NCBI GenBank assembly: GCA_963727845.1
Contig: CAVSHI010000001.1
Coordinates: forward strand, 87,308 to 151,307
DNA from: Ignavibacteriota bacterium
Lineage (GTDB): Bacteria; Bacteroidota; Ignavibacteria; UBA10030; SZUA-254
DNA length: 64,000 nucleotides
Direction of reading: 5' to 3'
A program made the translations under genes and the position numbers. The notes beneath the pieces were generated by a model, which was not told where the DNA came from, ran no database searches, and saw only the letters and a program-made list of their open reading frames with translations. Positions 27,518 through 44,112 of this stretch are shown piece after piece. Every line of letters starts with the position of its first letter. The stretch's first letter is position 1.

Positions 27518-30500
27518 CTATTCCTGCTTCCATTCCGGCATTCTTCCCGGTGTCCACGGTGAACCAGCCCTTTCCATCGCTTTCTCGAGCCCCGCAAGGT
27601 CGACATCCACGAGCGCGTGGAGTTTCTCAAGCTCTTTGCCGAACGACTCGGCGCTCATCGTGTAAGCGTCAATGTCCGTTTGCGTCGGGCGTGATGTTGA
27701 AGTTCGTCCATCATCAACGCTTCTGCTGATCCGGTCGCCGATGGAAACCGGCGAGTTCTCATTTCGTGAACGCAGCGTATTGTCGCCCTGCAGATTGCGG
27801 AGGATGGTTGTCAACCGGCTTTCTATTGAAAGTTCCTCGGTGATGAGGTTGTCAACAGGTGCGGCTGTTTCCTGCAACGCGCGTTTAATTGAGCCAAGCC
27901 GGGATTTTACTTCGTTTGCAACCTGAACTGCGCCGTGAAAAGCACGCTGGAGCCGGGCGGCCTTTTGCTGGAATTCAACGAGAGCTTTTCTATCCTCTGT
28001 TTGCATTGTTGCCTGTCCGGGTACGTACACGGTAAACGTTTGCGGTTCACCAAGTTGCGTGACAATCCCCGAGACCCGTTTGGCAAGGGTGACGGTATAT
28101 TTCCCGGGCATCACCAGCGGACCGCCTTCGGGCGTTTCATCGCTTCCGGGGGGCGGGGCTGAAGAAAGCGTCGGTAACGGGTACCGGAGATCCCATGTCG
28201 TTCGGTGCACGCCTTTTGAGCTCGAGCCTGCGAGCCTGCGGACAACTTTTCCCTCACTGTCGGTAATCGTTAGAATGACCGACGGCGTTTCTTCTTCATC
28301 TTCCGCCCGCAGTTCCTCCGCTGTAGGATATCGAACGGGCTGCTTTTTCTTCTCGGCTTCTTTTTCAGCGTCCCGGCGGATTTCCCTCCTGGTTTTCAGA
28401 GCGTCCTTCAAATAGTACGTCACCGTGGCGCCGAAGGAAGGATTGGGTGCGGTGAAGAACGATTCGCCCTGGTCTGCTTTTCCGGATCCGCCAAGCGGCT
28501 GGGCAAGGATAAACATCGGTGCATCCTTGACCGGGAATGTCAGCGCGTCACCGGCGAGCAATTCGGGTCTGAGTGATCGCAGTGGAGTATAATCGTCTAG
28601 GACATAAAATCCTCTGCCAAATGTTGCCGCGACAAGGTCGTTTTCTCTCTTCTGAATTGCAAGGTCGCGTACGGCGATCGTAGGCAGTCCGCCTTTGAGC
28701 TGGATCCACTTCGTTCCGCCGTCGACCGTGAAGAAGAGTCCGAATTCAGTACCCGCAAATAGCAGATTCCGGTTCACATGATCCTCGGCGATCGCGAGCA
28801 CAGGTCCGTTGGGAGGAAGGTTCCCCGCGACCGATTCCCAGGATTTGCCGGCGTCGGTGCTTCTCAAGACGTATGGAGCGAAATCGCTGTTCTTGTGGTT
28901 ATCGAAGGCCGCGTACACTGTATTCACATCAAGCTGCGATGCCAGGAGACGGCTCACGTAGGTACGCTCGGGAACGCCGGGAAATTTCTCGATCTTGGTC
29001 CAGGTTAAACCGCCATCCTGTGTGACATGAATCAGGCCGTCATCCGTCCCGACGTAGATCAGTCCTTCTTTCATCGGAGATTCAAAGAGCGCGGTGCAGT
29101 TTCCGTACAACGAGGTCGACGCATTTTTTGCCACCGCTTCCGCTCCCCACACTTTTCCCATTACCGGGAGAGCATTCCGGTCGATCTGGCGGCTGAGGTC
29201 GTCACTGATAGCCTTCCATGTGTCTCCACGGTCGTCGCTGCGAAACAGCTTGTTTGCCGCATAATACAATCGTGTGTGACTGTGCGGGCTGACAATCAAC
29301 GGCGAATCCCAATTCCACCGCAAACCCATCGCACCTTGTTCCGGCAGCGGCTGAATGCCCAGCTCTTCTCCTGTGCGGCGGTCATAACGCACGAGCCCGC
29401 CGTACTGGCTTTCACTATAGACGATATTCGGATCCTCGGGGTCGACACGCGACTGGAATCCGTCGCCGCCGGTCGTGACAAACCAGTCAGCGTTTGTAAT
29501 TCCCGATGCGTTGCGGGTCCGGGAGGGTCCCCCAACGGAGGCATTGTCCTGGGTGCCACCGTAGACAAAGTAAAAGGGGGTTGAATTGTCGACGCACACG
29601 TCATAGAATTGAGTGACGGGAAGATTTGCTTTGAATGCCCATGACTGTGCGCGGTCGAAACTTTCGTACAATCCTCCATCGCATCCGACCAGGTAATGGC
29701 TGGTATTGGCCGGATCAATCCACATGGCGTGATTGTCGACGTGTTTCGATTTCTCACCCAGTCGTGAGAAGGTTTTTCCGCCGTCGTCGGTCACCATGAT
29801 AAGCATATCCATCAGATAAACGCGGTCGACGTTCCTGGGGTCCGGCACGATCGTTCCGTAGTACATGGGCGCGCTTGCGACGAAGTCGTTTCGCTTTTCC
29901 CAGCTTGCTCCATAATCAAGGCTACGGAAGAAACCTCCGTTCTTCGAAGCCGCTTCGATTGTCGCGTACACGACCCGGGAGTCGACGGGCGATATTGCCA
30001 GCCCGATTCGACCGACATCATCGGAGGGCAAGCCATTTTTCAGCTTCGACCATGTTGCTCCCGCGTCGGTGGATTTGTAAATGGCCGATTCGGGACCTCC
30101 ATCGATCAGTGTCCACACGTGCCGCCGGCGCTGATACGATGCGGCATAGAGGACATCAGGATTCTTCGGATCGAAGACGATATCGGTGACGCCCGTGTTC
30201 TCACTGATGAAGAGAACATTTTTCCACGACGTCCCGCCGTCCGTGCTCTTGAACAATCCGCGCTCGCCGCCCGGTCCCCAGAGCGGTCCTTGAGAAGCGA
30301 CGTAGACGATGTTACTGTTCCGCGGGTCGACGAGAACGCGGGCAATGTGCTCGGATTTCTTGAGACCCATATTTTTCCAGGATTTTCCCCCGTCATCCGA
30401 ACGATACACGCCATCGCCATAGCCGACGCTGCGCTGGCTGTGGTTCTCTCCCGTTCCTACCCAGACGACCATGGGATTGTTTGGGTCGATACTCACGCAC

Positions 30501-30829
30501 CCGATGGAATACGATCCTTCATTGTCAAAGATGGGCGTCCACGTCGTTCCTGCATTCGTCGTTTTCCAGACACCGCCCGATGCGGCCGCGATATAATAGT
30601 TGGTGTTGTCGTAGGGATTCACGGCGATCGACGATATCCTTCCGGCGTTCAGAGCCGGTCCGATGGAACGCAGTTTCAGACCGCCAAATGTCTCCGTCGA
30701 CATGGGGTCCTTCGATTTGGCTGCATCATCCTGCGGCGACCCCGTCTTCGGCATGTCACCGCTGATGAGCGCATGATTTAAAATCAGGCAGATGGGCATC
30801 AAAAGGATGAATCTTGAGAGGGTTTTCAT
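27518..30829 (-). CDS. Large secreted VPS10/BNR-repeat (sortilin-like) putative glycosyl hydrolase
   Basis: Signal peptide, RSIGPA...GRI, many S/TxDxGxTW Asp-box repeats and a coiled C-terminus. Confidence 0.88.
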   Translation of the reverse strand: MKTLSRFILLMPICLILNHALISGDMPKTGSPQDDAAKSKDPMSTETFGGLKLRSIGPALNAGRISSIAVNPYDNTNYYIAAASGGVWKTTNAGTTWTPIFDNEGSYSIGCVSIDPNNPMVVWVGTGENHSQRSVGYGDGVYRSDDGGKSWKNMGLKKSEHIARVLVDPRNSNIVYVASQGPLWGPGGERGLFKSTDGGTSWKNVLFISENTGVTDIVFDPKNPDVLYAASYQRRRHVWTLIDGGPESAIYKSTDAGATWSKLKNGLPSDDVGRIGLAISPVDSRVVYATIEAASKNGGFFRSLDYGASWEKRNDFVASAPMYYGTIVPDPRNVDRVYLMDMLIMVTDDGGKTFSRLGEKSKHVDNHAMWIDPANTSHYLVGCDGGLYESFDRAQSWAFKANLPVTQFYDVCVDNSTPFYFVYGGTQDNASVGGPSRTRNASGITNADWFVTTGGDGFQSRVDPEDPNIVYSESQYGGLVRYDRRTGEELGIQPLPEQGAMGLRWNWDSPLIVSPHSHTRLYYAANKLFRSDDRGDTWKAISDDLSRQIDRNALPVMGKVWGAEAVAKNASTSLYGNCTALFESPMKEGLIYVGTDDGLIHVTQDGGLTWTKIEKFPGVPERTYVSRLLASQLDVNTVYAAFDNHKNSDFAPYVLRSTDAGKSWESVAGNLPPNGPVLAIAEDHVNRNLLFAGTEFGLFFTVDGGTKWIQLKGGLPTIAVRDLAIQKRENDLVAATFGRGFYVLDDYTPLRSLRPELLAGDALTFPVKDAPMFILAQPLGGSGKADQGESFFTAPNPSFGATVTYYLKDALKTRREIRRDAEKEAEKKKQPVRYPTAEELRAEDEEETPSVILTITDSEGKVVRRLAGSSSKGVHRTTWDLRYPLPTLSSAPPPGSDETPEGGPLVMPGKYTVTLAKRVSGIVTQLGEPQTFTVYVPGQATMQTEDRKALVEFQQKAARLQRAFHGAVQVANEVKSRLGSIKRALQETAAPVDNLITEELSIESRLTTILRNLQGDNTLRSRNENSPVSIGDRISRSVDDGRTSTSRPTQTDIDAYTMSAESFGKELEKLHALVDVDLAGLEKAMERAGSPWTPGRMPEWKQE

Positions 30830-30940
30830 ATTCGTGGATTCCTTAAGAAATGAGATATACTTCTCTATTATAGAACGGTTCTTTGGAAATTGATAGGGAA
30901 ATTTACACTATTGAAAATAGATTAGCAAGCCATCACTCAC
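30814..30940. repeat. 127-bp direct repeat, copy A
   Basis: Matches 32944-33070. The 58-bp core (30883-30940) differs at 2 positions. It contains the MKTLS start, the RBS region and a minus-strand TATAAT. Confidence 0.9.
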
Positions 30941-31221
30941 GCGTTCACCTTCTCAGACTGTTCCTTGCTGATCTCAACTTCGTAATCTTTTGTTACTGTG
31001 AGGTAACGTTCATCCAGCAGGATCATACCGACTTTTTCATTATGCCGGCTGGCTTTCATCCCTGTTCACGGACATAGACACCGTGTCTATGTTGGTGTCT
31101 ATGTATGCTGTCCCAAAGGGCAATTGGGGAAGCGCTCTTATCTGGACACTTTGTCCAGATTTATGTCCAGATTCCACCTTTGGTCAAATCTCTTAGCGAT
31201 AATCGGGTCACAATGTCCCGA

Positions 31222-32772
31222 TTACTGAGCAGATTTTTTACGAGCGCCAGGCCCAAGCATATACTTTGACGAAGGTCCCTTACCGAGGAGATGGATGAGT
31301 TGAAGCTCCGCAAACCAGGCTAAGTGTCTTTGCGCTTTTTTATCGTTGTAATTAAAATGACCTGCATATTGTTTCTTGGTGACTTCGCCAATTGATTTAA
31401 TCCACTCAAAACCCTTTAGTTCTTCGATTGACAATTTAGAGAGCGATGGCTCTCCCGAGACCCTCCTGACGGCTTCAAGACTTCTTGGAAACGTGAGGGT
31501 GAGAAAAGGGTCGTTGAAAGCATACTCAGGCGAAGGCAAACCGTATTTCTCAGTCATTTCCTTAAACGTTCTCATGCCAAATCCAGTTTCTTCCATGTAT
31601 CCCATGAGATTGAACACGTATGTAAGAATCGGATTCCGACTGATTGACGGTGCCTTGAACGAATTCAACTGCTCCAATGAGATGGATGGTAAAGGTGCAC
31701 CAGGACTCTTCACGACAATCTTCTCGTTGTCAATTTCAAGAGAGCATTTGGCACCTTCAATTGCGTAATCTCTATGTACCAAAGCGTTGATCACTGCCTC
31801 ACGAAGCACTTCTATCGGGAAGTCGGGAACATCTTTGCGCTTGAATGAGGATGTGTCTTTATAATGCGGTAATGACTTCTTCAGCCATTCATTTACGAGA
31901 TCGGGGATTAGAACCAATGGCTGGTCAAAATCCTCTGGTTCGATCTTACCGCTACCATAGTTAACGTGTGCTTTCAGTACCGCTTGCTTGAACTTCACCC
32001 GTGGGTCCTTACCAAAAAGGAGAAGACCCGCACCGGTGGGACAGTACGTATTTCCTTTCTCGTCCAATTCCATTGACCCAAGATCCGCAAGGTAACTTTG
32101 GAAGTCACTGTCATTGAGGCGAAAATTGAGCTTGGCCTCTTTGACAAACTTTTGCAGAGCTTCCTCAGAGAATTGGGCGAAGTCGTACCTTGCAATTGGC
32201 TGCTTCAAGAAAGCAACTCCTCCTCTGCGTTTTGCCTCCTTGGCTCTTTGCTGGGCTTGTCTTAGATACTTCATATTCTCCTTCTCGATGATCTTCTGGT
32301 ATTCACGGTCGAACATGAGAACTTTGGCGCCTCGGTTCTCCATGAATTCAATCCCTTCACCTGCGACGGTTGGATCACGGTCCTGTATTCCCACGTAGAC
32401 AGTCCTGATACGAGCGTTTGTCACTCTTTTGCAACAACCTTTCTTCGGCAGATTCCTTTTTACACATGGCTCCAGCGTTGTAAAAAGGATGCAATTGTCC
32501 AGTTTTTTGTTGTGCAGCTTCCTTTCCAGCAGAGTATACTCAGCGTGATCGCCCTCCCTGAGTTCACCCCTATAAGCTGTTTCATGGGTGCCGTCGGCAT
32601 GAACCAGCACGGCGCCAACCTTTGGGCTGATCTTGCCATCATCTCTCTGCTCAGGCACGGATTTCTTCATTTCTTCCACGGCGATCTTCATGAACCTCTG
32701 TGGTTCGAACGTGGTGCTTCTTCTAGCCATTTTCGTGAATTGGTTGCGATAGAATGTGGTTTCAGTACTCAA
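31222..32772 (-). CDS. Fusion of a Zn-dependent cytidine/RibD-like deaminase domain, an HATPase_c_4 ('RecG C-terminal') domain and a winged HTH
   Basis: KVGAVLV...HAE...TTLEPC...C deaminase motifs; LREAVINALVHRDY...PG...RNP...MEETGFG ATPase-like motifs; C-terminal wHTH. The start may be the ATG at 32730. Confidence 0.8.
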   Translation of the reverse strand: MSTETTFYRNQFTKMARRSTTFEPQRFMKIAVEEMKKSVPEQRDDGKISPKVGAVLVHADGTHETAYRGELREGDHAEYTLLERKLHNKKLDNCILFTTLEPCVKRNLPKKGCCKRVTNARIRTVYVGIQDRDPTVAGEGIEFMENRGAKVLMFDREYQKIIEKENMKYLRQAQQRAKEAKRRGGVAFLKQPIARYDFAQFSEEALQKFVKEAKLNFRLNDSDFQSYLADLGSMELDEKGNTYCPTGAGLLLFGKDPRVKFKQAVLKAHVNYGSGKIEPEDFDQPLVLIPDLVNEWLKKSLPHYKDTSSFKRKDVPDFPIEVLREAVINALVHRDYAIEGAKCSLEIDNEKIVVKSPGAPLPSISLEQLNSFKAPSISRNPILTYVFNLMGYMEETGFGMRTFKEMTEKYGLPSPEYAFNDPFLTLTFPRSLEAVRRVSGEPSLSKLSIEELKGFEWIKSIGEVTKKQYAGHFNYNDKKAQRHLAWFAELQLIHLLGKGPSSKYMLGPGARKKSAQ

Positions 32773-32959
32773 AATTTGTAATTGTCTTTATCTTCATCGT
32801 AATGCCGGTCGTCATCATCCTGGTCATGATCGTCCTCGTCACTGGGCCCATTGTCGCCCCCCACCGCCGCCGTCTGTCGTTGTCTTCACTGCTGACGGCC
32901 GCATCATGCAAAAGCAAACGTGTGAATATCGGGAGGCAGGTTTTTGAGAGGGTTTTCAT
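32762..32959 (-). pseudogene. Short ORF starting like the VPS10 gene (MKTLS); probable remnant
   Basis: The start lies within repeat copy B. An alternative frame encodes the acidic run GDNGPSDEDDHDQDDDDRHYDEDKDNYKF. Confidence 0.35.
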
Positions 32960-33070
32960 ATTCCTTGATCCTTGAGAAATGAAAGATGGTTCTTTATTAT
33001 AGATGAGATTTCTTGGAAATTGATAGGGAAATCTACACTATTGAAAATAGATTAGCAAACCATCACTCAC
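32944..33070. repeat. 127-bp direct repeat, copy B
   Basis: Matches 30814-30940. Confidence 0.9.
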
Positions 33071-33260
33071 ACTTTTGCCTTCTCGTACTCCACGTTGTCC
33101 ATTTCAAATCTCGGGTCGCCCTGGACAATTGTGCACTCGGGGCGAAAGTCGACCACCCGGTTGCCTGTAACGCCGAGGTAAAATTTCGTCAAAATAAGCT
33201 TTCGTCGGAAGCCCTTTTTTTGTCCCTCGCTAGTTTGAGGGCATCGATAACGACCGCCAT
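33067..33260 (-). pseudogene. Small frameshifted ORF after the STAS gene (MAVVIDA...IVQGDPRFE...)
   Basis: GGAGG RBS before ATG 33260 and a stop after 23 codons; one extra A in the A7 run would give a 64-aa ORF ending at 33067. Confidence 0.3.
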
Positions 33261-33268
33261 TTGCCTCC

Positions 33269-33625
33269 TTAAGCGGGTATCAACGATGCGTAGTATTCCT
33301 TGGGATTGATACCCCTTTTTATCAGAGACCGCCTTGTCTGTGCATTGTCGATCGCAAGCTCAAGTTCTTCGGCGTCGTCCTGATCAAGACCGACGATTTT
33401 CACTTTTTGGTGGAACACATCCGCGTGCCAATCGAGATCGATGCACAACTGACCGAAGGCATGGTTGAGGAACGCGCTCGACAAAAACTCGTAATCTGTA
33501 AAGTCTACCGAAATAGTTTTTGTTGATGCTAACACCTTTCTGATTTCATCTGCCAATAACTTGCCCTTCTCAGGTGCGAGCAAGCGCGGTGTTTCCAGCA
33601 GCTTTACGACGAGGATGTTTCTCAT
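33269..33625 (-). CDS. STAS-like domain protein (DUF4325 type)
   Basis: GKLLADEI...ISVDFTDYEFLSSAFLNHAFGQL; start ATG at 33625. Confidence 0.8.
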   Translation of the reverse strand: MRNILVVKLLETPRLLAPEKGKLLADEIRKVLASTKTISVDFTDYEFLSSAFLNHAFGQLCIDLDWHADVFHQKVKIVGLDQDDAEELELAIDNAQTRRSLIKRGINPKEYYASLIPA

Positions 33626-33668
33626 AACTTTTCGCCTTTCATCGTGGTAAGGTTGCCATCGCAGTTTG

Positions 33669-34607
33669 CTAAAGACCAAAGATGATTCTCACAAGTATCC
33701 CAATTCCTAATGCGGTCATGATGCTTCCAGAAGTACCCAAGAGATAGTACTCAGCAAAGTCCTTGCTCTGTTCAAGTTCCTTGAAGCGGGCTATTGATTT
33801 GGCCGTCAGCACGAACGCAATTGCAGTGAAATTACCCGTGAGTACCAGTGTCAGGGTGATAATGCGCTCAAGTATCCCAATCCACTCTCCGACGTTTTCC
33901 TCGTTCTTTTTATCATCGCTGACGTTGCATGTGGTATCGCCTGCGCCGGCGCTCGTGGCGGTGGTCGTCGTCGTGGTCTCCGTCCTCGTTGTCACGTTGT
34001 TTATTATCGCGGTGCTGATGCTCGTTGTGGTTGTCGTATCGCTCTTTCCATTACTTAGGTTTTCGATGACCCGGCTGTAGAGTCCTGGAAATTTAGCGAG
34101 AATTCCCCGAACTATGAGCGTCCCGCCGTCGATGATGAAGAGATAGGCCGTGGTAATTGCGAGGAAGAGTGTGAATCTATCTCTGAGCATCACGGCGAGC
34201 TTCCCTGTTCCGGAAAGCACATAGGTTTCAGCGTCGACATACCAATCGTGTGGCGTAACGGGTAAGGCATATCGCCACAAAGTGTAAATCAATACACCCA
34301 TGAGAAGTTGTTTCGTCAGGAACACTTCGAGCGACTTCTGTGCGAATACATCCTTTGTCGGTTTTTTACCTGCCAAGTCGTAGAGTATGCAGACTGCGCC
34401 AATTGCGATATAGCCCGCAACGAGCTTGAGAGACAAAAACCCCAGTGTCCCCACCGTTAGTATGGCTAACAGCAGTGCCGCGCGGGCGATTATATTCCTG
34501 CTAGATAGGTTGTTTGATGGTGTCCAGATTGCACGCTTGAGGAAAAACTCATTCAGCGAGTACAAACAGACAAGTACAGCCAAGTATGTAAGATCGTGTT
34601 CGGTCAT
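33669..34607 (-). CDS. DUF3307-type multi-pass membrane protein
   Basis: About six TM helices and the C-terminal signature GEWIGILER...TAKSIARF...AEYYLLGT; adjacent to SatD. Confidence 0.8.
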   Translation of the reverse strand: MTEHDLTYLAVLVCLYSLNEFFLKRAIWTPSNNLSSRNIIARAALLLAILTVGTLGFLSLKLVAGYIAIGAVCILYDLAGKKPTKDVFAQKSLEVFLTKQLLMGVLIYTLWRYALPVTPHDWYVDAETYVLSGTGKLAVMLRDRFTLFLAITTAYLFIIDGGTLIVRGILAKFPGLYSRVIENLSNGKSDTTTTTSISTAIINNVTTRTETTTTTTATSAGAGDTTCNVSDDKKNEENVGEWIGILERIITLTLVLTGNFTAIAFVLTAKSIARFKELEQSKDFAEYYLLGTSGSIMTALGIGILVRIIFGL

Positions 34608-34648
34608 GCAAGATGCCTCGATGCAACCAGGTAATGTTGATTTAGCTG

Positions 34649-34722
34649 ATTCAACCTTTTAAGGTTGAATCTTGGAAAACAACCTTTTAAGGTTGAATCT
34701 CGAAAAACAACCCTTTGGGGTT
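34649..34722. repeat. Tandem 28-bp units each containing palindrome CAACCTT-TT-AAGGTTG (2 full copies, 1 degenerate)
   Basis: ATTCAACCTTTTAAGGTTGAAT at 34649-34670; second copy at 34680; degenerate third copy at 34708. Confidence 0.85.
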
Positions 34723-35347
34723 AATTGACTGTTGCGAGGAGTTGTCGCAGCACTTCAGATGCTTCCTCCACCTCCACAACCGCCGACGACCGCTTTGCCT
34801 TTGAGATTGCCTGAACAGAGATCCGTAAACGACGGGCAACTTCCTTCGGGCTTTGCTCTTTCAAGAGTTGGTTGATCTGCCGCTGTCGTGGTGTGAGCCG
34901 GGACCATTCCCGATCCATCAGGGCAACAAGGGCATTGGCCACTCGTTCCTTGTCAGAGTCAAAGGAGTAGCAGAGAGTTCGCTTCAGGCGTTTTGCGTCA
35001 CTCAAAGCTTGGCGCGCACGATGAAATGCCTCGCCGTCCATACCCAGAGCTGAGTCTTTTTTCAGCGGTGTAGAGAGTGAGCCTATCCCGACCCCGAATG
35101 CAAACGGTATCGGCTCCATGAGATCCTCAAACCGCCGCACCAGATCGTAGCTCTCCTCCGGCGTATTGAGCAGCCCCTGGAACTCGTCTCCAAGCGTAAC
35201 GAGAAATTTTGAGGCGATTGACCTCTTGAACTCTTCATTGATCGTTTCTATGGCAGCAGCAAAATTCCGCTGAACCTTTGCCCGCTCAAGAAGTGACCGA
35301 GAACGATTGATATCGCCGATGATGGCACAGTATGTTTTCTGTCTCAT
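34721..35347 (-). CDS. SatD-family protein (cyclase-like N-terminal fold plus C-terminal HTH)
   Basis: AIIGDINRS, TLGDEFQG, GVGIGSL, GMDGEAFHRAR and LTPRQ...PKEVARRLRISVQAISK. Confidence 0.85.
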   Translation of the reverse strand: MRQKTYCAIIGDINRSRSLLERAKVQRNFAAAIETINEEFKRSIASKFLVTLGDEFQGLLNTPEESYDLVRRFEDLMEPIPFAFGVGIGSLSTPLKKDSALGMDGEAFHRARQALSDAKRLKRTLCYSFDSDKERVANALVALMDREWSRLTPRQRQINQLLKEQSPKEVARRLRISVQAISKAKRSSAVVEVEEASEVLRQLLATVN

Positions 35348-35384: not shown

Positions 35385-38300
35385 TTAACCCTTCACTCTG
35401 TCCGCCACCCACTTTGTCAGGTTCTGTCCTTCGAGTTTCGGAGATTGGTTCCCCTCTCTCACGAACACCTCATCGTCAAGGAGAACAATCTCCGGCTTTG
35501 CGACTGGAGTGAACCTCACGACACCTACCGTTCCCTCCGGCAGTTCCTCAAAAGTAACGTCGACTGAGCCCAACGGTTGAGGTTTGAAGCGCGATGAGAT
35601 CATCGCTCTAAGCTTCAACTCAAACCCATCCTTGTCGTGCTTATTGCAAAGCTTGTAATCTCCTCCCAGCCCTTTTACTTCGCCGGAATCTGAGACGCCA
35701 ATTAGTAATGTTCCTCCATTCGTGTTCAGAAAAGCACAGATGGTCTTGAGTGACGAGTGAACGACATCCTTCACCGTCTCTGCGTACCTTTGATTAATTT
35801 GGGCTTCAGGAACATGTTTAGCGCGAAGCGGTTGCTTGTACGCTTCCTGATCCACGTATTCGAGCGTTTCCTTAAACTCAAGTTGCGCTCCTTCGCCTTG
35901 TGATATCAGCATGAGTATGGGATGCGATTTCCAGTAGCCGGGCGGTTTCGACAGGATCATCTCACAGCGGGCCAGATGCGCTGCATATCTTTCTCCTACC
36001 GCATTCAGCACCCCTTGCGCCTCGGCAAGCTTTGGATATCGGCGGCAAAACCAAAGCTCAATCTCTTTGATATCTTCCTCAATCAACCCGTACAATTCGT
36101 AGATAAGATGATCTATTTCAGCTTGCTCATTGAGATGATAGCGATACGCCGGCTCCTTCTTTTGTTTCTCAACTATCGCGCCCACGAGTCTGCTTATTGT
36201 CTCGCTATGTTTTTCTGAGGAAAGTGCCAAGCCAAAATCCAGTACGTCGCCTTCTTGTGTGTGAACGGTGTGGTTATGATAAACCTTGAAGAGGTGTCTC
36301 GCCAAGAGAGAACATAGACACCCCAACAAGTATTCGTAACCAAGAATTTCAGTGAAAATTCCCGATCCGGTGTTCTGGAAAACAGACTCAGCGTTTAATC
36401 TGAAACTCGGACTATATTGGCCTGTCGGTGAAAACGAGATTCCACGTGTGAACCAGAAATCCTCATTGCGCAGTGCGGAGGCAAGTTTCTTATCGTCGCC
36501 ATCTCTGATTTTTCCCTTTTCTCCATAGTATCTTTTTCTGTCAGAAATCGTCAGAGACTTCATCCTCTTTATTGATTTGTATGACCAGTCTATGAAGTAG
36601 TCACAGGGGACGTAGTAGTTTGGCAACCAGCCGACTTCCGTGTCCGCTTCACCCCCCTTGTCGAACGGGACAAAGTGTTTTCCACCAAACCTGCTTGTAG
36701 GAATCCCATTGAGTTGCTCCTCTTCAGTGAGATCTCGGAGTTCTCTCTGTGTCAGAATGAGTTTTGCATCGACCTGTTCGTAACTTCCACCGATACCTTC
36801 TCGTTTGCGAACGTAGTACTCATTATCACCGGTTGAGATACCCTGGACGATAGATGCAATATCACCAAAACGTACAATCTCCACAGATTTACCGTTGATT
36901 TGGAGATTGCGGGCATCAACCGCTTTTTTTTCTATGAGGCCAACTTCTTTCTTCTTCTTATTCACTTGCTTGTCATCCATTGTCAGCGCAAAGAGCTTCG
37001 GGCTACCAATGAAGAACGGAAGGTTAGAGTTACGACCAACCAAGGCCTGTGCGTAAGTGTATCGCGCATAAGTTGCTGTTTGAAGGTCAACGCCGTGTGC
37101 TGCTACAGCGCCAAGGTTTGCATCAAGCGTGGTCCAGTCACCTGCTGGCAATGAGTGGAGATCGCCAGCAACTATATAATGCTTCTCATGGGCTCGCTCG
37201 TTTCTAAGTGAGAGGATGCAGGTGTTTACGGTCGCCTTGAAGATCCATGAAGGCAGATCGAGCACGTGCAAGACAGTCTTGGTCAGGAGATGTTTTCTCA
37301 GAGGTTTGTGCGTGCGAATGGTTCGCCAAGTGTCAGACACGATGAATGTGAAGAATCCTCCGGGCTTGAGCAGTTGGAGAGCACGGGCCATGAATAGCCC
37401 GTAGCTGTCCTTGCTTTGCGGAACTTCTCCCTTCACCTTGGGAAAATACTGGAACCGGAGCGGGTCTTCACACGCAACGCCGTATGGCGGGTTTGCAAGT
37501 ACAACATTGAAGCCGTCATGCCTGAATACCTCCGCAAACTTCACCCGCCAATCAAAAGAGTCCTTCGGTGCAGGACTATCCCTGAGCGCTTTAGTAAGTT
37601 GTTCCTCCTCTTTGAGAATCTCAGCAGCGCGTTGTTTTTTCACTTCATGGTGTGCGCGCATGTGCTCGCCTTTTAGCACGGCAATCTTGTCGGCGTGTTC
37701 AAGCAACACCTGCCGAAACAGATCAGGAATATCTTGTGGGTTTGGGGCAGTAAGGCTGTCACCAACTTCAATCTTGAAATCGAGATTCGGAAGTGGCGGT
37801 GGATCGTTGCCCTCAAAATCCACGGCGAGAGAAAGCCAAAGCCGCAGACGCGCAATGTTGGTTGCAAATGGATCGATGTCTACGCCGTACAGAGTGTTCT
37901 GGATGATATTGAGTTTTCGTTCGTAATCATCCTTTGCCGAGGGTTTATCCGTCCGGGTGTCGAGCAACCGGGTGATGTCATGTAACTCATGCAGCATGCC
38001 GAGCAGGTAAGCGCCGCTGCCGCAGGCCGGGTCAACTACGGTAATCTTCGCGATTTGGGTAAGCAACTCACGCGCTTGCGGAACGATGATCCCACTCGCA
38101 TCCCGTTCCTCGATGAGTTTCTCCCAGCCACCGAGGTATCCTTTGAGCGCCTCCCGGCACATGAAGGACACAATAGTGCGGGGTGTGTAGTAACTGCCGG
38201 TCTCGTGGCGGCCAGTTACCAGTTCCTCGAAGATCCGTCCAAGCATTTCCGGGTCAACAGCGACAGTGACATCGAGCGGCGTACTCTCGGTGACTGTGAA

Positions 38301-39329
38301 GTTAAAATGATAGAACAGCTCTGTGAATGCCGGTTCAATAGCCTTGTCGGGAACAATGATCTTATCGTCCTGATCGGTTTCGTCTTGTTCGAATAGCCCG
38401 CCGTTCAGATATGGCACTCTGCCGATCACCTTCGCAAGGAATCCTCCACGGTTGATGCCGATCTGATTGACTTCATTGGGGGCATTCAAGCCGGAGAAGA
38501 ACAGAAGACGCAGACGATCACGATAGAAGCTGCTTTCCTTTGTCGCCTCCTTCTTGTAGTCTTCCCAGAGTGAACGCAAATAATCAGTGCGGTCGTTCAA
38601 CTTTAGCCAATCCTTCTTTTCAAGAAACCTCACAAAAAGAAGTCGATTGAAAAGCTTTTGTGTGAAGAGCCGCTTTTCGTCGCCCTTGACGCCGCGAATG
38701 AGATCCTCTGCGTTCTCGAAAACGCGTCTGTATTCTCTGAAGAACTCCGCAGTAACCTTTTCTACATCAAATGCAGTTGACCAAAGGTGAAGCCAGTTTG
38801 AAGGATCAATGCCAATCAGATTTTCTTCGGGCCATCCAAGCGCGGGGAGGTTGAACTCACACAAAGTACGAACCGGCTCTTCAGGCGACCACGAGAAGCG
38901 CGCCAGCTTTGCCCGTTCGGGTTTCTCGCCACGGAAGTGAGCGAACGTGAACTCTTGATTGGCGGTCATGCAGATAAAGAGGAGGTTTTCATGCTGCCAG
39001 CCGGGGAGCTTTGCATCTCGGCGGCGTTTTGGCACAAGTCCGCGCAGGACTTGTCGCAGGGCAGTTTTGTACACCTGGCCGTCGGTGAAGTTTACGAGGA
39101 AGATTCCCCAGGGTTGACCGTCTACCATCGGACGCAATTGTTTGATTGATCCATGGGCAAGGCGCTGCTGAGCGGCCGTACTCAACCGGAGATCTGCCGC
39201 TGTCCACTCAAATGTGACATCGTCAATGACAGGGTTTTCCGGCAAAGGCCAGTGAAGCTCATGCTCAAAAAACTCCAGAAGTGTTTTCTGGTCCCTGATT
39301 CTTCGGACAGCTTCTTCAGTAATCGCCAT
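35385..39329 (-). CDS. Eco57I/type IIG-like N6-adenine DNA methyltransferase with TRD and a C-terminal Schlafen/AlbA_2 domain
   Basis: YLNGGLF, GSYYTP, DPACGSGAYL, NPPY; C-terminal LEFKETL...TICAFLNTNGGTLLIGVSD. Start ATG at 39329. Confidence 0.88.
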   Translation of the reverse strand: MAITEEAVRRIRDQKTLLEFFEHELHWPLPENPVIDDVTFEWTAADLRLSTAAQQRLAHGSIKQLRPMVDGQPWGIFLVNFTDGQVYKTALRQVLRGLVPKRRRDAKLPGWQHENLLFICMTANQEFTFAHFRGEKPERAKLARFSWSPEEPVRTLCEFNLPALGWPEENLIGIDPSNWLHLWSTAFDVEKVTAEFFREYRRVFENAEDLIRGVKGDEKRLFTQKLFNRLLFVRFLEKKDWLKLNDRTDYLRSLWEDYKKEATKESSFYRDRLRLLFFSGLNAPNEVNQIGINRGGFLAKVIGRVPYLNGGLFEQDETDQDDKIIVPDKAIEPAFTELFYHFNFTVTESTPLDVTVAVDPEMLGRIFEELVTGRHETGSYYTPRTIVSFMCREALKGYLGGWEKLIEERDASGIIVPQARELLTQIAKITVVDPACGSGAYLLGMLHELHDITRLLDTRTDKPSAKDDYERKLNIIQNTLYGVDIDPFATNIARLRLWLSLAVDFEGNDPPPLPNLDFKIEVGDSLTAPNPQDIPDLFRQVLLEHADKIAVLKGEHMRAHHEVKKQRAAEILKEEEQLTKALRDSPAPKDSFDWRVKFAEVFRHDGFNVVLANPPYGVACEDPLRFQYFPKVKGEVPQSKDSYGLFMARALQLLKPGGFFTFIVSDTWRTIRTHKPLRKHLLTKTVLHVLDLPSWIFKATVNTCILSLRNERAHEKHYIVAGDLHSLPAGDWTTLDANLGAVAAHGVDLQTATYARYTYAQALVGRNSNLPFFIGSPKLFALTMDDKQVNKKKKEVGLIEKKAVDARNLQINGKSVEIVRFGDIASIVQGISTGDNEYYVRKREGIGGSYEQVDAKLILTQRELRDLTEEEQLNGIPTSRFGGKHFVPFDKGGEADTEVGWLPNYYVPCDYFIDWSYKSIKRMKSLTISDRKRYYGEKGKIRDGDDKKLASALRNEDFWFTRGISFSPTGQYSPSFRLNAESVFQNTGSGIFTEILGYEYLLGCLCSLLARHLFKVYHNHTVHTQEGDVLDFGLALSSEKHSETISRLVGAIVEKQKKEPAYRYHLNEQAEIDHLIYELYGLIEEDIKEIELWFCRRYPKLAEAQGVLNAVGERYAAHLARCEMILSKPPGYWKSHPILMLISQGEGAQLEFKETLEYVDQEAYKQPLRAKHVPEAQINQRYAETVKDVVHSSLKTICAFLNTNGGTLLIGVSDSGEVKGLGGDYKLCNKHDKDGFELKLRAMISSRFKPQPLGSVDVTFEELPEGTVGVVRFTPVAKPEIVLLDDEVFVREGNQSPKLEGQNLTKWVADRVKG

Positions 39330-39381
39330 CAGGAAACCTCCGATACCTTGACGGAGTGGAGGCGCTCGATGTCTGAGGGTT

Positions 39382-40482
39382 TCATGACGGTCGGGCCTGT
39401 TTCTTTTCCGGGATTCCACGCTGTGCAAGCCGCTCGCGCGCAGCAACAACCGCCCGGTGCAGTTTCTTCTCAAGAAGTTTCCGTGGCGGCAGCTCGGTCA
39501 TGTACTCCGCTACGCGGATGCTGCTCTTTTCAAGTTGCAGCAGCTCTACTTGCTCGGTGGATTTGCCGGCACAGAGAATCAAGCCGACGGGTGAGTCTTC
39601 ACCGTCTTGTTGCTCATGCTTCTCCAGCCAGCGGAGGTATAGCTCCATCTGCCCTTTGTCGGCGGCTCTGAACGCGCCAAGCTTCAGGTCAACCACGACG
39701 AGCCTGTGCAACTTGCGATGGTAGAAGAGAAGGTCGATATAGTAGTCCTCGTTGTCAACGGTGATCCGCTTCTGTCGGGCGACAAAGCTGAACCCCACGC
39801 CAAGCTCAAGGATGAATGACTCCATCTCCCGGAGGATCGCGGCTTCGAGGTCTTTTTCGCTGTAGGCATCCTTGAGGCCGAGGAAGTCAAGAAAGTAAGG
39901 ATCACGGAAAACAAGATCTGGCGTGAGCTTGTCTTCATTGCGCAGGGATTTCAGTTCCTGCTTGATCAGCTTGTCCGGTTTCTTTGAGATGGCGGTGCGC
40001 TCATAGAGCATGCTTCCAATCTTCTCACGGAGTGTACGAACGCTCCACCGTTCGATGCGGCACATTTCGGCGTAGAAATCCCTTTTGAGTGTGTCCTCAA
40101 CTGTGATTAACTCGATGAAGTGGCTCCACCCCAATTGTTGCGACAGTGTCGCAACAATCTTCAGTCGGGGGAACATTTCAGAAAATGTAATCATGCGCGT
40201 AAGAGCGCTATATGAGAAACCCTTCCCGTATTCCTGCATTAATTGTGCAGACAGTGTCTGCACAATCTGACGACCATATTCTGCACGCTTTTCACCGAGT
40301 ACGTCCTTGTGAATCCGTGCCCCGATCTGCCAGTAGAGCATAGAGGTTGTTGAGTTTACTGCGACCGCAAAATGTTGGCGTACAGTATTAACGAGTTCCC
40401 GGATTTCACCGAATAGCCGCACAGCAACCTCGTTTGTCTTCTCCTGCCTAACGATGAGCGAAACGACTCTTCTCTTCTTCAT
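39382..40482 (-). CDS. DUF1016/YhcG PD-(D/E)XK nuclease-domain protein
   Basis: YWQIG, LGWSHF, RDPYFLDFL, ELGVGFSFVARQ, IDLLFYHR...VDLK and PVGLILC. Confidence 0.92.
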   Translation of the reverse strand: MKKRRVVSLIVRQEKTNEVAVRLFGEIRELVNTVRQHFAVAVNSTTSMLYWQIGARIHKDVLGEKRAEYGRQIVQTLSAQLMQEYGKGFSYSALTRMITFSEMFPRLKIVATLSQQLGWSHFIELITVEDTLKRDFYAEMCRIERWSVRTLREKIGSMLYERTAISKKPDKLIKQELKSLRNEDKLTPDLVFRDPYFLDFLGLKDAYSEKDLEAAILREMESFILELGVGFSFVARQKRITVDNEDYYIDLLFYHRKLHRLVVVDLKLGAFRAADKGQMELYLRWLEKHEQQDGEDSPVGLILCAGKSTEQVELLQLEKSSIRVAEYMTELPPRKLLEKKLHRAVVAARERLAQRGIPEKKQARPS

Positions 40483-43400
40483 CAACTTAACTCCATCCAC
40501 GCTTTGAGTTTTGCCTTAACCCCTATCGGCGCCTGGACACTCTTGAAATATGTGTTCTGGATATACCGTTCCACTTTGGCGCGAATCTCAGTGAGTGATT
40601 TTTTCTCCATAGCGCAGTGTCGCGGAGTCTTAGGAGTGCATCTGATCAGCTTAATGATCTCACTTGGTTCTTCAACCACCCTCTCACCGGCAAGATCAAA
40701 AAGATACCAGCGAGAAGAGCCTGCGTCTTCCGTCCAAACCATCGCATCGGTTTTCCCTTTATCACTGTCCTCAGCTTTTGGCGCAGGCAGCGAGTAACAA
40801 AGGAACACTGCGCGTGAACCTTTGCATTCATGCTCCTTACCACTAAAGACTTTTCCGGGCAAAGCGTCAAGCCTGGCAACCAATCCTGCATCGTCCTGCA
40901 GAAGCTTGTTATATTCGAGCCGCATAGCTTCGAGCTCGCTCGTGGTCCCTTCGAGTTCATGCGTAAACTCTTTCAAAGCATCAAAATCGTCCTTTGGTGT
41001 GAGGAGCTTCTTTCCTTCAATGCCGAAAACTTTGGAGATCCTAAGCGTCTTATGCGATACTTTTGCGTACAGATTGAGCAGCCGATCAAGTTCGTCGGGC
41101 GGAAGGAAGTTCCAGTATGCCACAGTCCGGCGGACGTCCTTCTGATCTGGGTGATCCAAAAGTATGCGTTCTTCAATGTCTGGGTTTAATCGTCGGTCCA
41201 CGCGTCCAATACGCTGCATCAGCCGGACAGGATTCCAATGCAAGTCGTAGTTGATAAGCCGGGTGGCATCCTGCAGGTTGAGTCCTTCGGAAAGAACGTC
41301 CGTTGAAACTAAAACCCGAGTTTCTGACAACCCCTCACTGGCAAGTTCTTTTGAAGACGATCCGTTGTAGTACGGAGAGAACTGACGTATAGTCTTGCCT
41401 CTGTCCTTGTCCACCGCGCTATCAACTTCGTCGATGTTCTCAATACCTGCGCGCTCGAGCTCGCCTCGAAGATAGCGCGCGGTTGCCATGTACTCTGAGA
41501 AAATTAGCACCTTATGACGCTTGAGTACAGGATCGTCCTTGAGCAACTGGATGAGCCTCTTCAACTTGTCATCGTTCGAAACTTTGAACTTCTTCAGTTC
41601 TACGAGAAACTCAGCTATTTGGTCAAGATCCTGGTAGGTCTCGTTCATGATCTCTTCAACCTTATACTCCTGACGCGAGAGAGACTCAATGTCGTCCAGC
41701 ATCTCGTCGGTGATTACGTCCTCATCAATCTCCTGCTCTGGATCAGACCCGAACAACTCGAGCTGGTGTTTCTTCAAGCTTCCGATAACCTCTGCATGCT
41801 TCAGCTTCCAATGATCCAGTTTATCCTTCTCCGCTGGAGTGATGCTTTGTTTTTCAATCCACGCCAGGAGCCTCAGAAGAAGGCTTTCGCAGGACATCTC
41901 GAATGCCTTCGCAGAACTTTCAAAACGCTTAAGAAACTGGGTGCGGATAAGTCCGACGACCTGTTTCTGTCGTCCCTTCTCAAAAGGATCGACTTTCGTG
42001 TCGGGACCTTTGTAGTAAGCCAGGGGGAAGTAGACAGCGAGTGAGAAGAGTGGCTTCTCTTTGGAGAAGGCCGTTTCGATCATCTCGAGCAACCGGCCGT
42101 ATGTTTTCTTTACAGAGTAGTCGGCGACAATCGGATCCTGGCGAACTGGAAAAATGGCAAGGCGACCGCCATGCTGAAGCTGATTTGCCTTAACATACGC
42201 GCGGCTACGCTGGACCACGAGTGCCCTGAAGAGGTTATCGCTGAACAAGACCTTCTCAGCTTCGGCTTGGTTGGTCTCGAACTCCATCTCAACCTGAGGA
42301 TTATCCTTGCCGCCCAGAAATTTTTCAAGAACGTTTTCCATTTTCCTAAAATGACCGGACAGCGAGTGAATGCCCAGTGGGGCGACCTTGAAATAGTCTG
42401 GCCTTTCACGACGGGAAAACAACTCAATCATGTGTTGCAAATCTCTGAGACTGTTGTTGATCGGCGTGGCAGTCAACATGAAAAGGGTCTTACCCTCTGC
42501 GATTTCGTAGAGCTTCCAGTAACGGGACTTCTCTTTGACGCCGGGGTTCCGGAAGTGGTGTGCCTCGTCGATCACGATCACATCGGCTTGCTCTGTCATC
42601 CTCTTCATCTCATCCGCATACTCGCCACCTCGCATGAGATCAGTGTGGCTGAAAATACGTAGGTTAGTGAAGCCACCACCGAGATCAGGGAGATAACGAT
42701 CCAAAGACATTTGCCAAACGGGCTTCAAGGCAGCCTTCGGTACCAACAGCATCACACGCTTGCGTTCGTACTTTATGAGACGTTCAATCAACATCATACC
42801 GATAAAGGTCTTGCCCAGGCCTACTCCGTCGCAAAGCAAAGCCCCTCCCCATTTATCCCCGATTTTCATCAAAGCCTGGTATCCCTCGCGTTGATATCGA
42901 TCCAACTGTGGAAAAACCTTCGAATGCGTCAACTCCCACTCTCCAACCGTCATCTCATGTCCGCGAAAGAACTCCTGAAGAGCTTTCGCGTACACTTCGA
43001 ACGGTGAATAATCTCGTGTGTGCCGTTCAATGACTTTCAAGATGTCATCCGTGATGTCCTCCGCTTGGTTCCAATGACGGTCGAACCATTCTTGAAGAAT
43101 CTCGACCTCACGTCGAATCTGGACGTTAAGTTCGACGTTCTTTGTCAAACCCGGAAATGTGAAGTTGCTTGATCCTACCAGAGCAGATGACCCAACAACA
43201 GCAGACTTTGCATGAGTAATGTACGCCTTCGCGTGGAACTTGTCTTTGGTGTATACCTTACAGAGCATTGTTTTCTTTTGAAGGGCATCAACAATGCCCG
43301 GTACACCGGCAAGGAAGTCGTTCGTTTCTTTTTCTCTCTCAATGCTTGCATCGAGAACAGCCTTCACATGCTCGACGCCTTCGAGGAGAGCTTTCTTGGT

Positions 43401-43619
43401 TCTCCGGGAGACCTCATCACCCATGAGGATCCGAAGTTTGTCGAGTTTCTGCCATTGACCATCAAGAGCGAGCAGTGCACCGATCTCAAAGTAGCCCGTC
43501 GCAATGTCGAACGAATTGGCGATGTCAGTCCATTCGTGGAGGTAGTTCAGGACTTTCCAGTCAGAGTCGCTGTTGTCAACGATGAAGAGTTCTGAGCCAG
43601 CCTTGTTGGGTTTAGTCAT
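40482..43619 (-). CDS. PLD-nuclease / SNF2-like helicase fusion
   Basis: HAK...GSSNFT PLD motif, DGVGLGKT, DEAH, LTATPINN, STDVLSEGLNLQ and QRIGRVDR. Start ATG at 43619. Confidence 0.9.
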   Translation of the reverse strand: MTKPNKAGSELFIVDNSDSDWKVLNYLHEWTDIANSFDIATGYFEIGALLALDGQWQKLDKLRILMGDEVSRRTKKALLEGVEHVKAVLDASIEREKETNDFLAGVPGIVDALQKKTMLCKVYTKDKFHAKAYITHAKSAVVGSSALVGSSNFTFPGLTKNVELNVQIRREVEILQEWFDRHWNQAEDITDDILKVIERHTRDYSPFEVYAKALQEFFRGHEMTVGEWELTHSKVFPQLDRYQREGYQALMKIGDKWGGALLCDGVGLGKTFIGMMLIERLIKYERKRVMLLVPKAALKPVWQMSLDRYLPDLGGGFTNLRIFSHTDLMRGGEYADEMKRMTEQADVIVIDEAHHFRNPGVKEKSRYWKLYEIAEGKTLFMLTATPINNSLRDLQHMIELFSRRERPDYFKVAPLGIHSLSGHFRKMENVLEKFLGGKDNPQVEMEFETNQAEAEKVLFSDNLFRALVVQRSRAYVKANQLQHGGRLAIFPVRQDPIVADYSVKKTYGRLLEMIETAFSKEKPLFSLAVYFPLAYYKGPDTKVDPFEKGRQKQVVGLIRTQFLKRFESSAKAFEMSCESLLLRLLAWIEKQSITPAEKDKLDHWKLKHAEVIGSLKKHQLELFGSDPEQEIDEDVITDEMLDDIESLSRQEYKVEEIMNETYQDLDQIAEFLVELKKFKVSNDDKLKRLIQLLKDDPVLKRHKVLIFSEYMATARYLRGELERAGIENIDEVDSAVDKDRGKTIRQFSPYYNGSSSKELASEGLSETRVLVSTDVLSEGLNLQDATRLINYDLHWNPVRLMQRIGRVDRRLNPDIEERILLDHPDQKDVRRTVAYWNFLPPDELDRLLNLYAKVSHKTLRISKVFGIEGKKLLTPKDDFDALKEFTHELEGTTSELEAMRLEYNKLLQDDAGLVARLDALPGKVFSGKEHECKGSRAVFLCYSLPAPKAEDSDKGKTDAMVWTEDAGSSRWYLFDLAGERVVEEPSEIIKLIRCTPKTPRHCAMEKKSLTEIRAKVERYIQNTYFKSVQAPIGVKAKLKAWMELS

Positions 43620-44112
43620 CAATGCTGAAGATAAGTGGTAATAGTCACATGCCAACCTTTGCAAAACAAAGAGCCCGTAGAGTATCGGGATGCTTGCTGG
43701 ATGCCACCCTACGGTTTCAGTTGTTCATTCCGTCGAATGGAGGTTCTCAAATCCTTGCTTGGAGACCAGCAAACTTCGCAGGGAATATACGAAAAAAAGA
43801 AGAAACAATGAAGGGCACTCATCTCTTGGCTAGTCCCGGTGTAGATCCACCAAGGTCAATCCCGGGTGAGTTTGTCTTTCTTCCTTTCCCGAAAATATCG
43901 TATCTTCCTATAATTCGAGGCAGCTCAAAAATCCCAATAGCTTGTCATGCCCGAATGTTCCGCTTTTCAGAATCCCGCCTACGTAAGCGGAATCCAGATG
44001 CCGGGACTTTAGTCGGACATCTTAATTGGATTCCCGCTTAAGACGTGCGGGAATGGCAAGCGTGTTGACCCGATCATGCGAAGCATGAATTAACAATTCA
44101 GAAGTCTCATTT

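Follow-up and report, generated by a model that had tools for sequence, protein, structure and literature searches.

A RibD-like zinc deaminase on a GHKL-winged-helix scaffold, linked to restriction-modification islands and to matched DNA repeat arrays, as a candidate defence protein

Introduction

The combination of an SLFN_AlbA_2 domain with a GHKL ATPase domain was named 'Schlatpase' in a 2026 preprint, which reports that 58.6% of some 103,000 prokaryotic Schlafen proteins have this combination and that more than 90% bear a C-terminal helix-turn-helix (HTH) (bioRxiv 10.64898/2026.05.29.728809). According to the same preprint, ATP binding by the GHKL part drives tetramerisation, and the glutamate E314 of RzAgo, the counterpart of the N-box glutamate, is required for ATP hydrolysis. 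The module is described there as being exchanged among prokaryotic Argonaute (pAgo), NACHT and restriction-modification (RM) systems, and in proven defence proteins the homologous body is joined to nuclease or Argonaute effectors. In this study, we analysed a 64,000-nucleotide stretch of an Ignavibacteriota genome (contig CAVSHI010000001.1; hereafter the window), in which one gene encodes a zinc deaminase joined to a GHKL ATPase body and a winged helix-turn-helix (wHTH) tail.

PrrC and RloC are anticodon nucleases embedded in type I RM operons and are thought to serve as a back-up when restriction is blocked. Relatives of the window gene are similar to them as optional effector genes among hsd genes, at loci where hsdS and hsdR, or hsdR and hsdM, flank the gene. 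The protein is unrelated, with no ABC-ATPase or anticodon-nuclease domain, and the family also occurs with type IIG systems and alone. Antiviral deaminases that act on the nucleotide pool are a further point of comparison. DCD/AvcD have the cytidine deaminase (CDA) fold and Cad1 and the RADAR protein RdrB the adenosine-deaminase fold, and AvcD is restrained by a nucleic acid encoded at its own locus. The window protein has this concept in common with them, but its head is a different, RibD-like deaminase with no detectable homology to their PADLOC models, and its control would lie with a GHKL ATPase and a wHTH, where the others have a kinase-like domain, CARF or an AAA+ partner. Both the Schlatpase-type scaffold and deaminase effectors are already known; their combination is new relative to the literature found.

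Here we describe this deaminase-GHKL-wHTH family, its association with RM operons, and the triple-repeat arrays that follow its genes and recur in uncultured phage genomes. We infer a defence function for the protein.

Results

The coordinates of the window gene, its domains and its surroundings are given in Table 1. Pfam matches in the window protein comprised dCMP_cyt_deam_1 at aa 25-128 (E 4e-13), Inv-AAD at aa 79-162 and HATPase_c_4 (PF13749) at aa 340-428 (E 4e-16), and no match to AlbA_2 (PF04326) or RibD_C was obtained down to E = 1. The AlphaFold model (pLDDT 85) was composed of three domains, a head, a body and a tail. A preliminary description of the open reading frame (ORF) had placed intact HAE and PC-x(n)-C motifs at the N-terminus, followed by an RNP ATPase-like domain and a wHTH, and this layout was confirmed: the zinc loop is PC-x9-C, the ATPase-like domain is PF13749, and the tail is a winged helix in the model. 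H62, A63, E64, P88, C89, C99, E311, N315 and the SPG and GxGM boxes were invariant in 36 homologues with 56-83% identity. Judged by its motifs, the head is a catalytically intact zinc deaminase.

The head scored 49.6 bits against PF00383, for which the cut-off is 25. Its top NCBIfam and PDB profile matches were the deaminase halves of RibD/RibG, and in the AlphaFold model it superposed on the RibG/RibD deaminase domain (2b3z/4g3m; Foldseek E 2e-9, rmsd 2.5 A, 27% identity). Foldseek also matched its fold to dCMP deaminase and cytosine deaminase. By sequence and fold, the closest relatives are the small-molecule enzymes RibD/RibG, Rib2, dCMP deaminase and cytosine deaminase, and APOBEC-type matches were marginal (E about 1e-2). 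Weak Pfam matches of the head were to Inv-AAD and MafB19 deaminases. No PADLOC profile model matched it, including those for dCTP deaminase/AvcD, RADAR and Cad1.

In B. subtilis RibG, D101 and N103 hold the ribose hydroxyls and K79 of the zinc loop holds the phosphate (PMC8256712). In a profile alignment, D101/N103 corresponded to the family-invariant D117/D119, the K79 region to the invariant R92/K96, and C74...K79...C83 to the zinc loop P88-C89-x9-C99. Since the ribose-binding Asp pair and the basic zinc-loop residue of RibG are kept, the deaminase most likely acts on a free ribonucleotide-like molecule and not on the bases of a polymer. The earlier wording, 'nucleotide or nucleic-acid deaminase', can be narrowed in this respect: the deaminase stands, and its specifically RibD-like character favours a free nucleotide over nucleic acid.

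The RibD-like clade is characterised by a CxxC insert holding a conserved His and by an extended insert between strand 4 and helix 4 (Iyer et al. 2011, PMC3239186). In the window protein, the x9 insert of the zinc loop was present without the clade His, and the DPxVxG segment after strand 4 was present. The head has the HxE motif, the PC...C motif with its zinc-loop insert, the DPxPxVxGxG-like segment and the ribose-binding Asp in common with RibD/RibG (2b3z, 4g3m, 2hxv). It differs from them by the absence of a reductase domain, by D-x-D in place of D-P-N, and by a zinc-loop insert that has invariant Arg/Lys and no His; many additional invariant basic residues, the fusion to GHKL-wHTH and the RM-island location also set the family apart. 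On these sequence features, the head is best called a derived sister of RibD.

The top fold match of the body was DIP2311 (3lmm), an AlbA_2-GHKL-HTH protein (Foldseek E 4e-13), and the tail matched MarR/ArsR-type winged helices (MarR, CadC and ST1889). PADLOC matched only pAgo-associated GHKL models (SLFN-pAgo / Aga), over aa 174-427. The GHKL body, the winged-helix tail and the conserved ATP-site motifs are common to the window protein and the Schlatpase-HTH proteins (COG2865, DIP2311, the RzAgo module), and both occur within or next to RM systems and defence islands. The window protein is without the N-terminal Schlafen/AlbA_2 nuclease-like domain and has the RibD-like zinc deaminase there instead. 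The triple-repeat arrays described below are not mentioned for Schlatpase in the passages of the preprint covered by a term search (bioRxiv 10.64898/2026.05.29.728809). As judged from the model, the protein would resemble Schlatpase in its working and is not a member of that family, a deaminase fold standing in place of SLFN_AlbA_2. The 3lmm match and the preprint agree with the earlier statement that this scaffold usually bears an N-terminal Schlafen/AlbA_2 domain. The proposal that the effector slot had been swapped for a deaminase was correct as to the slot; the swap is an old, family-wide architecture of more than 3,000 proteins and not a local event.

More than 3,000 matches were obtained in a protein search with the window protein. 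The best 120 of them all contained PF13749 and PF00383, were about 500 aa long and were named only 'ATP-binding protein' or 'RecG'. A one-protein query of genome contigs gave two loci, and an alignment-based pattern scan found relatives with 45-80% identity in 295 of 185,579 species genomes. Most of these were Bacteroidota, with scattered Acidobacteriota, Ignavibacteria, Proteobacteria and others; as far as sequence identity tells, the distribution is patchy and transfer-like. Some family members of 594-624 aa (P0025, P0028, P0059; loci L058 and L129) had an extra, not annotated N-terminal domain of about 100 aa before the deaminase ('...PKFPGVYVPTT...KVGYFEY...'). Truncated or split gene copies were present at several loci (L001:10013-10642, L028, L065), among them an 86%-identical 209-aa stump between HsdR and mini-DprA in L001. 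The cassette decays as well as spreads. In literature searches, we found no paper describing a deaminase-headed GHKL-wHTH family.

We then compared gene neighbourhoods by calling ORFs and clustering neighbours in 80 fetched loci and the window; neighbours were identified by Pfam, hidden Markov models (HMMs) were built from the neighbour clusters for the RM-context count, and locus counts are given per 82 loci. The gene was co-directional with a type IIG methylase, PLD-SNF2, HsdM/S/R, GmrSD, an OLD-like ATPase or mini-DprA, inside type IIG or type I RM operons, at 38 of the 82 loci (a raw count). The recurrent neighbours were all close to the deaminase gene and co-directional with it. An Eco57I/MmeI-type type IIG methylase ended 6-24 bp before the gene at 17 loci other than the window, the PLD-SNF2 helicase was a neighbour at 9 loci, and HsdM, HsdS and HsdR were neighbours at about 18, where the gene was flanked by hsdS and hsdR or by hsdR and hsdM. 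OLD/SMC-like ATPases and GmrSD also recurred.

The commonest gene directly downstream of the arrays was mini-DprA (DNA_processg_A-like, ~150 aa), found ~90-180 nt past the gene at 12 loci (L006, L013, L021, L022, L028, L038, L041, L042, L053, L069, L070 and L001). The canonical block thus has four genes: PLD-SNF2, type IIG, deaminase and mini-DprA. At the remaining loci, the PADLOC neighbours included PifA, DarG, SoFic, DRT, a type IV restriction endonuclease, TIR-APAZ and YhcG. The survey of homologues for defence-gene context that the preliminary description had proposed was positive in this sense, with loci outside RM operons lying beside GmrSD, OLD-like ATPases, DarG, SoFic, DRT or TIR-APAZ.

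In about 57 of the 82 loci, the gene was followed, within 260 nt 3' of its stop codon, by an exact triple of 9-12-bp repeats, two direct and one inverted, compared with about 12 stray exact triples in the remaining ~1.3 Mb of the loci. The bacterial arrays started at the stop codon or a few nt past it and were nearly always on the sense strand. The repeat period was 11-12 bp, and arrays of the same class were 61-63 bp apart. The core varied by lineage (ACATAGACA, CTTGGACA, ATCTCGCCA, ATCGCGACA, TCCCGACA, TATCGTGACA, ATCTGGACA and others) and followed the class of the C-terminal tail: the area under the curve (AUC) for predicting a shared core was 0.95 with tail identity and 0.79 with body identity. 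L064 and L075 had bodies 88% identical, tails 44% identical and different cores, and converse cases also existed. The array classes cut across host orders. Within a class, the three cores of each array were strictly identical and the spacers drifted. The ATAGACA triple occurred at 26 loci in a genome-wide scan, and in at least 19 cases it immediately followed a GHKL-wHTH gene with the cognate '...RTASRHL...KSPKLRY' tail.

Three sites followed the window gene. An identical copy of the site B array, of the window class, lay at an equal offset in L003, which encodes a protein of 79% identity. The class of site C elsewhere accompanies 'RTASRHL...KSPKLRY' tails. Because the 11-12-bp period and the 61-63-bp spacing are integral helical turns, double-stranded DNA is favoured as the form that is read, and the winged-helix tail is predicted to read the arrays in this form. 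The imperfect stems were also examined for G.U wobble. There was no sense-strand bias (23 vs 23), and most outer mismatches were unpaired; the test has low power, the core stems being perfect, and it argues only weakly against a role confined to RNA.

L141 (1794-3320 and downstream), L151 and L127 had stacks of up to five arrays, from three or four core classes, behind one gene. L127 contained an AlbA_2-headed Schlatpase gene, then a remnant coding end of an older tail ('...GSGPSTYYEII') with its arrays. These stacks look like layers from the successive replacement of tail-array modules, and site C of the window looks like such a foreign-class array.

The same arrays were found in uncultured phage genomes. 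Exact triples in IMG/VR viral contigs numbered 39 for ATAGACA, 48 for TTGGACA, 12 for CTCGCCA and 5 for the window class CTGGACA, of which about 3 were convincing. Neither of two composition-matched permuted cores had a viral match (0 and 0), compared with 104 in total. Among the 104, no GHKL-wHTH gene lay beside an array. Twenty-nine were located 8-25 nt after a gene for a single-stranded DNA-binding protein (SSB) with an acidic ...DD(L/M)PF tail and ~40 nt before a UvsX-like recombinase gene. The region is a T4-like replication module with SSB, UvsX-like, exonuclease and DnaB-like helicase genes, and at the ssb-uvsX position related phages had an array of class ATAGACA or one of class TTGGACA. 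Intergenic phage arrays were sense in 39 cases vs 5 and were followed by a T-run.

The array-bearing viral loci are L083-L121 and L153-L198 (for example L111:10294-10376), and in one of them, L085, an ATAGACA array was nested within a TTGGACA array. No ATAGACA-class wHTH turned up when viral contigs were scanned for it, and no phage-encoded array reader was identified. Among cultured phages (INPHARED), there were no arrays and no close relative of the SSB of the array-bearing phages. The arrays thus have two habitats, behind the gene family in bacteria and in intergenic regions of phages, which points to an interaction between protein and phage. From these positions, phage DNA would either trigger the protein or titrate it as a decoy.

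The window ORF extends over 31222-32772 on the minus strand and counts 516 aa from its first TTG. The 502-aa database copy (P0001) and all close homologues begin at an ATG ('MA...') 14 codons inside it, and for this reason 31222-32730, with the ATG at 32730 and 502 aa plus stop, is most likely the true coding sequence (CDS). The ORF reported earlier therefore exists, with a start probably placed 42 nt too far upstream. A 65-aa remnant ORF that begins MKTLSK (32762-32959) precedes the deaminase start.

The defence island named in the preliminary description is real: the PLD-SNF2, YhcG and type IIG genes are on the same strand in a block (~30.8-43.7 kb) with lower G+C than its flanks. The PLD-SNF2 and type IIG genes, adjacent in other loci, are separated here by an inserted YhcG gene. 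The type IIG methylase of the window bears an extra C-terminal SLFN_AlbA_2 domain (aa 1194-1347) that is missing from its homologues of ~1,100 aa elsewhere; a Schlafen head is thus on the RM enzyme of the window while the nearby GHKL-wHTH body carries a deaminase. The SatD-DUF3307-STAS cassette occupied its position in the window only (0 of 81 other loci), and DUF4325 (STAS-like) was rejected as a general partner-switching mate of the GHKL domain, being a singleton among the 82 loci. The mini-DprA gene is missing from the window.

The deaminase gene and its arrays lie between two direct repeats of ~140-220 bp with 83% identity and a spacing of 2,130 bp. Expression of the deaminase gene is probably now driven from the upstream copy. 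By its sequence, the arrangement looks like a single-crossover (Campbell-type) insertion of circular DNA. A scan of the locus for promoter and terminator consensus sequences gave matches at background level. In a search of sequencing runs, no RNA-seq run contained the locus; it was present only in a low-coverage sediment metagenome with fragmentary contigs, in which there was no empty site or variant joint.

Table 1. Features of the window around the deaminase-GHKL-wHTH gene.
Feature	Position	Strand	Basis or remark
Deaminase-GHKL-wHTH CDS (most likely start)	31222..32730	-	Homologue starts; frame stays open upstream to TTG 32772
RibD-like CDA-fold zinc deaminase, aa 10-152 of the 502-aa form	32275..32703	-	PF00383 E 4e-13, PDB profile search, Foldseek
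H62-A63-E64, zinc ligand and catalytic glutamate	32539..32547	-	Translation; invariant in 36 homologues
Zinc-binding loop P88-C89-x9-C99, PCVKRNLPKKGC (PC-x9-C), R92 and K96 invariant	32434..32469	-	Translation and homologue alignment
Long basic linker helix joining head to body, aa 153-176	32203..32274	-	Model secondary structure
GHKL (Bergerat-fold) ATPase body, PF13749/HATPase_c_4, aa 177-430	31441..32202	-	Pfam, PADLOC, Foldseek
N-box REAVINALVHRDY (E311, N315), ATP/Mg site of the GHKL fold	31765..31803	-	Translation and homologue alignment
C-terminal wHTH, 'DKKAQRHLAWF' class	31246..31440	-	Model helices 435-475 and wing; Foldseek MarR/CadC/ST1889
Site A, near-palindrome TAATCGGGACAttgTGACCCGAT, overlaps stop codon	31202..31224	-	Dyad ~61 bp from site B dyad, as in same-class arrays elsewhere
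Site B, cognate array ATCTGGACA-taa-ATCTGGACA-aag-TGTCCAGAT, two direct and one inverted	31140..31172	-	Sequence
Site C, foreign-class array CATAGACAC-caa-CATAGACAC-ggt-GTCTATG	31073..31103	-	Sequence
Upstream repeat copy	32969..33107 (similarity on to ~32890)	-	Duplicates BNR/sortilin promoter region and first codons (MKTLS...)
Downstream repeat copy, functional promoter and start region of the BNR/sortilin gene	30840..30977 (similarity on to ~30760)	-	83% identity
BNR/sortilin gene	27518-30829 (ATG 30829)	-	Downstream of the deaminase gene
SatD - multi-transmembrane protein (DUF3307) - DUF4325 (STAS-like) cassette	33269..35347	-	Between type IIG and deaminase genes
Type IIG (Eco57I/MmeI-type) RM methylase	35385..39473	-	Member of recurring neighbour cluster
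YhcG/DUF1016 PD-(D/E)xK nuclease	39382..40500	-	PADLOC candidate PDC-S02, E 4e-132
PLD-SNF2 helicase/nuclease	40482..43664	-	Member of second recurring neighbour cluster

Discussion

With somewhat better than even confidence, we propose that the protein is an RM-linked, ATP-gated nucleotide-deaminase effector, a horizontally mobile accessory of RM islands whose tail reads the arrays. In such a mechanism, the winged-helix tail would bind the cognate arrays as double-stranded DNA, with all sites on one face of the helix. The geometry of the arrays would fit a dimer of dimers, comparable to the tetramer whose formation ATP drives in the related Schlatpase module. On binding ATP, the GHKL body would switch the oligomeric state and so gate the deaminase. 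The deaminase would then attack a free ribonucleotide-like molecule, and the nucleotide pool would be poisoned or depleted. The outcome would be an abortive or back-up defence once restriction fails. More tentatively, and with clearly less confidence, the tail and the triple-repeat array may together be a swappable specificity unit in an arms race against phages, either as a sensor of phage DNA coupled via the GHKL switch to the deaminase or as the target of phage-borne decoys.

Other explanations of the same observations were weighed. The arrays could act as RNA, in the manner of a type III toxin-antitoxin system: array RNA at the 3' end of the mRNA would keep the deaminase off, and the phage copies after ssb would be antitoxin mimics like pseudo-ToxI. 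The arrays do abut the stop codon, nearly always on the sense strand, and in phages the same orientation prevails close behind the highly expressed ssb, where T-runs follow. The occurrence of either core class at the same ssb-uvsX position in related phages suggests selection for an array there, and the deaminase AvcD, held by the small RNA AvcI (PMC10511110), is a precedent. We nevertheless regard this control as unlikely. Integral helical turns are not needed for RNA folding, the first direct repeat is as strictly conserved as the stem, and G.U-compatible mismatches are not over-represented on the sense strand of the imperfect stems. The MarR/ArsR-type fold of the tail is typical of double-stranded DNA binders, and a T-run is usually absent from the bacterial arrays. 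The corresponding structure, in which a hairpin of the second repeat, a 3-nt loop and the inverted repeat would bind the protein together with the preceding single-stranded copy, is unlikely to the same degree. The protein might primarily be a transcription regulator of its own operon, analogous to a controller protein for the RM or mini-DprA genes, with the head as a ligand-sensing or moonlighting domain. Operator-like cognate arrays precede the next gene (HsdR, HsdM/S or mini-DprA) in many loci, and COG2865-type proteins are routinely annotated as regulators. Such a role seems quite unlikely to us. The invariance of the catalytic deaminase residues and of the ribose and phosphate contacts over 45-80% identity argues for catalysis, the downstream gene varies in kind and orientation, and in the window the arrays face the duplicated promoter of the unrelated BNR gene. 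The homologous body also bears nuclease or Argonaute effectors in the proven defence proteins described in the Schlatpase preprint.

That the gene and its arrays are a selfish, addictive or mobile cassette inserting into RM islands and phage-like DNA, with the arrays as recombination or landing sites, is improbable. This would account for mixed-class stacks behind one gene, for the 3' remnants of older genes before retained arrays (L127, L141, L151), for the foreign-class site C and the nested array of viral L085, and for the exchange of tail plus array independently of the body. The window gene also lies in a 2,130-bp unit whose direct repeats are as left by a single crossover of circular DNA. 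Against it, the protein has no recombinase, transposase or nuclease domain and none consistently adjoins it, the long flanking repeats of the window are host sequence rather than array sequence, and the strict identity of the three cores fits protein read-out better than scars. A site-directed editor of nucleic acid, in which the wHTH would tether the deaminase at array DNA so that the head deaminates nearby single-stranded DNA or RNA and mutates or marks phage DNA, is distinctly improbable. A deaminase is indeed fused to a DNA-binding domain with defined sites, the phage arrays adjoin ssb and uvsX, the commonest downstream partner is the single-stranded-DNA-binding mini-DprA, and the head has weak matches to Inv-AAD and MafB19 deaminases. 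The closest relatives of the head act on small molecules, APOBEC-type matches being marginal, and the family keeps the RibG residues in contact with the free 2'/3'-OH of ribose. An ordinary metabolic enzyme, as a riboflavin-pathway or pyrimidine-salvage paralogue fused to a regulator, is scarcely credible even though RibD is the best NCBIfam and PDB match. RibD model TIGR00326 gave 45.2 bits against a cut-off of 156.35, with an alignment that covers the deaminase part alone, and RibD_C is absent; a riboflavin role was rejected on these two grounds, as the preliminary description had anticipated from the missing reductase domain. In addition, RibG N103 is replaced by Asp, the conserved His of the RibD zinc-loop insert (PMC3239186) is absent, and the family has a patchy distribution, like that of horizontally transferred genes, inside RM operons.

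Several observations weigh against the RM-linked, array-reading effector that we favour. About half of the loci have no recognised defence neighbour, many of those contigs being short, and PADLOC has no model for the family. Our literature searches found no experiment on any of its members. The window gene may act alone, as its RM genes are cut off by the SatD cassette, mini-DprA is missing and the gene has its own repeat-bounded 2.1-kb unit. Likeness to RibD leaves a base in RNA or DNA as a possible substrate. Tail and array are ~100 bp apart and would swap together, so linkage could partly explain their co-variation; the strict identity of the three cores per array is left unexplained by linkage. 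The choice of DNA over RNA binding comes from helical phasing alone, and the nearly uniform sense orientation, with T-runs after the phage arrays, is compatible with an RNA or terminator role. A protein-bound site beside the protein's own gene is also awkward for a model in which phage DNA is purely the trigger.

If the proposed RM-linked effector is correct, a RibD-derived nucleotide deaminase would be a new effector chemistry on the widespread Schlafen-type ATP-switch scaffold, the head of which would be an exchangeable 'warhead' slot. The family, with its thousands of members in Bacteroidota from the environment and in other groups, would then be a probable back-up immunity of restriction systems. 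Matched DNA repeats would provide an unusually concrete handle on control or sensing, since tail, array and phage counterpart can be swapped, and a compact site-reading protein that carries a deaminase could interest developers of enzymes and tools. In the arms-race reading, whether as sensor or as decoy target, the direct recognition of phage cis-elements by interchangeable DNA-binding modules, each gene keeping a copy of the recognised site next to it, would be a hitherto undescribed principle of defence.

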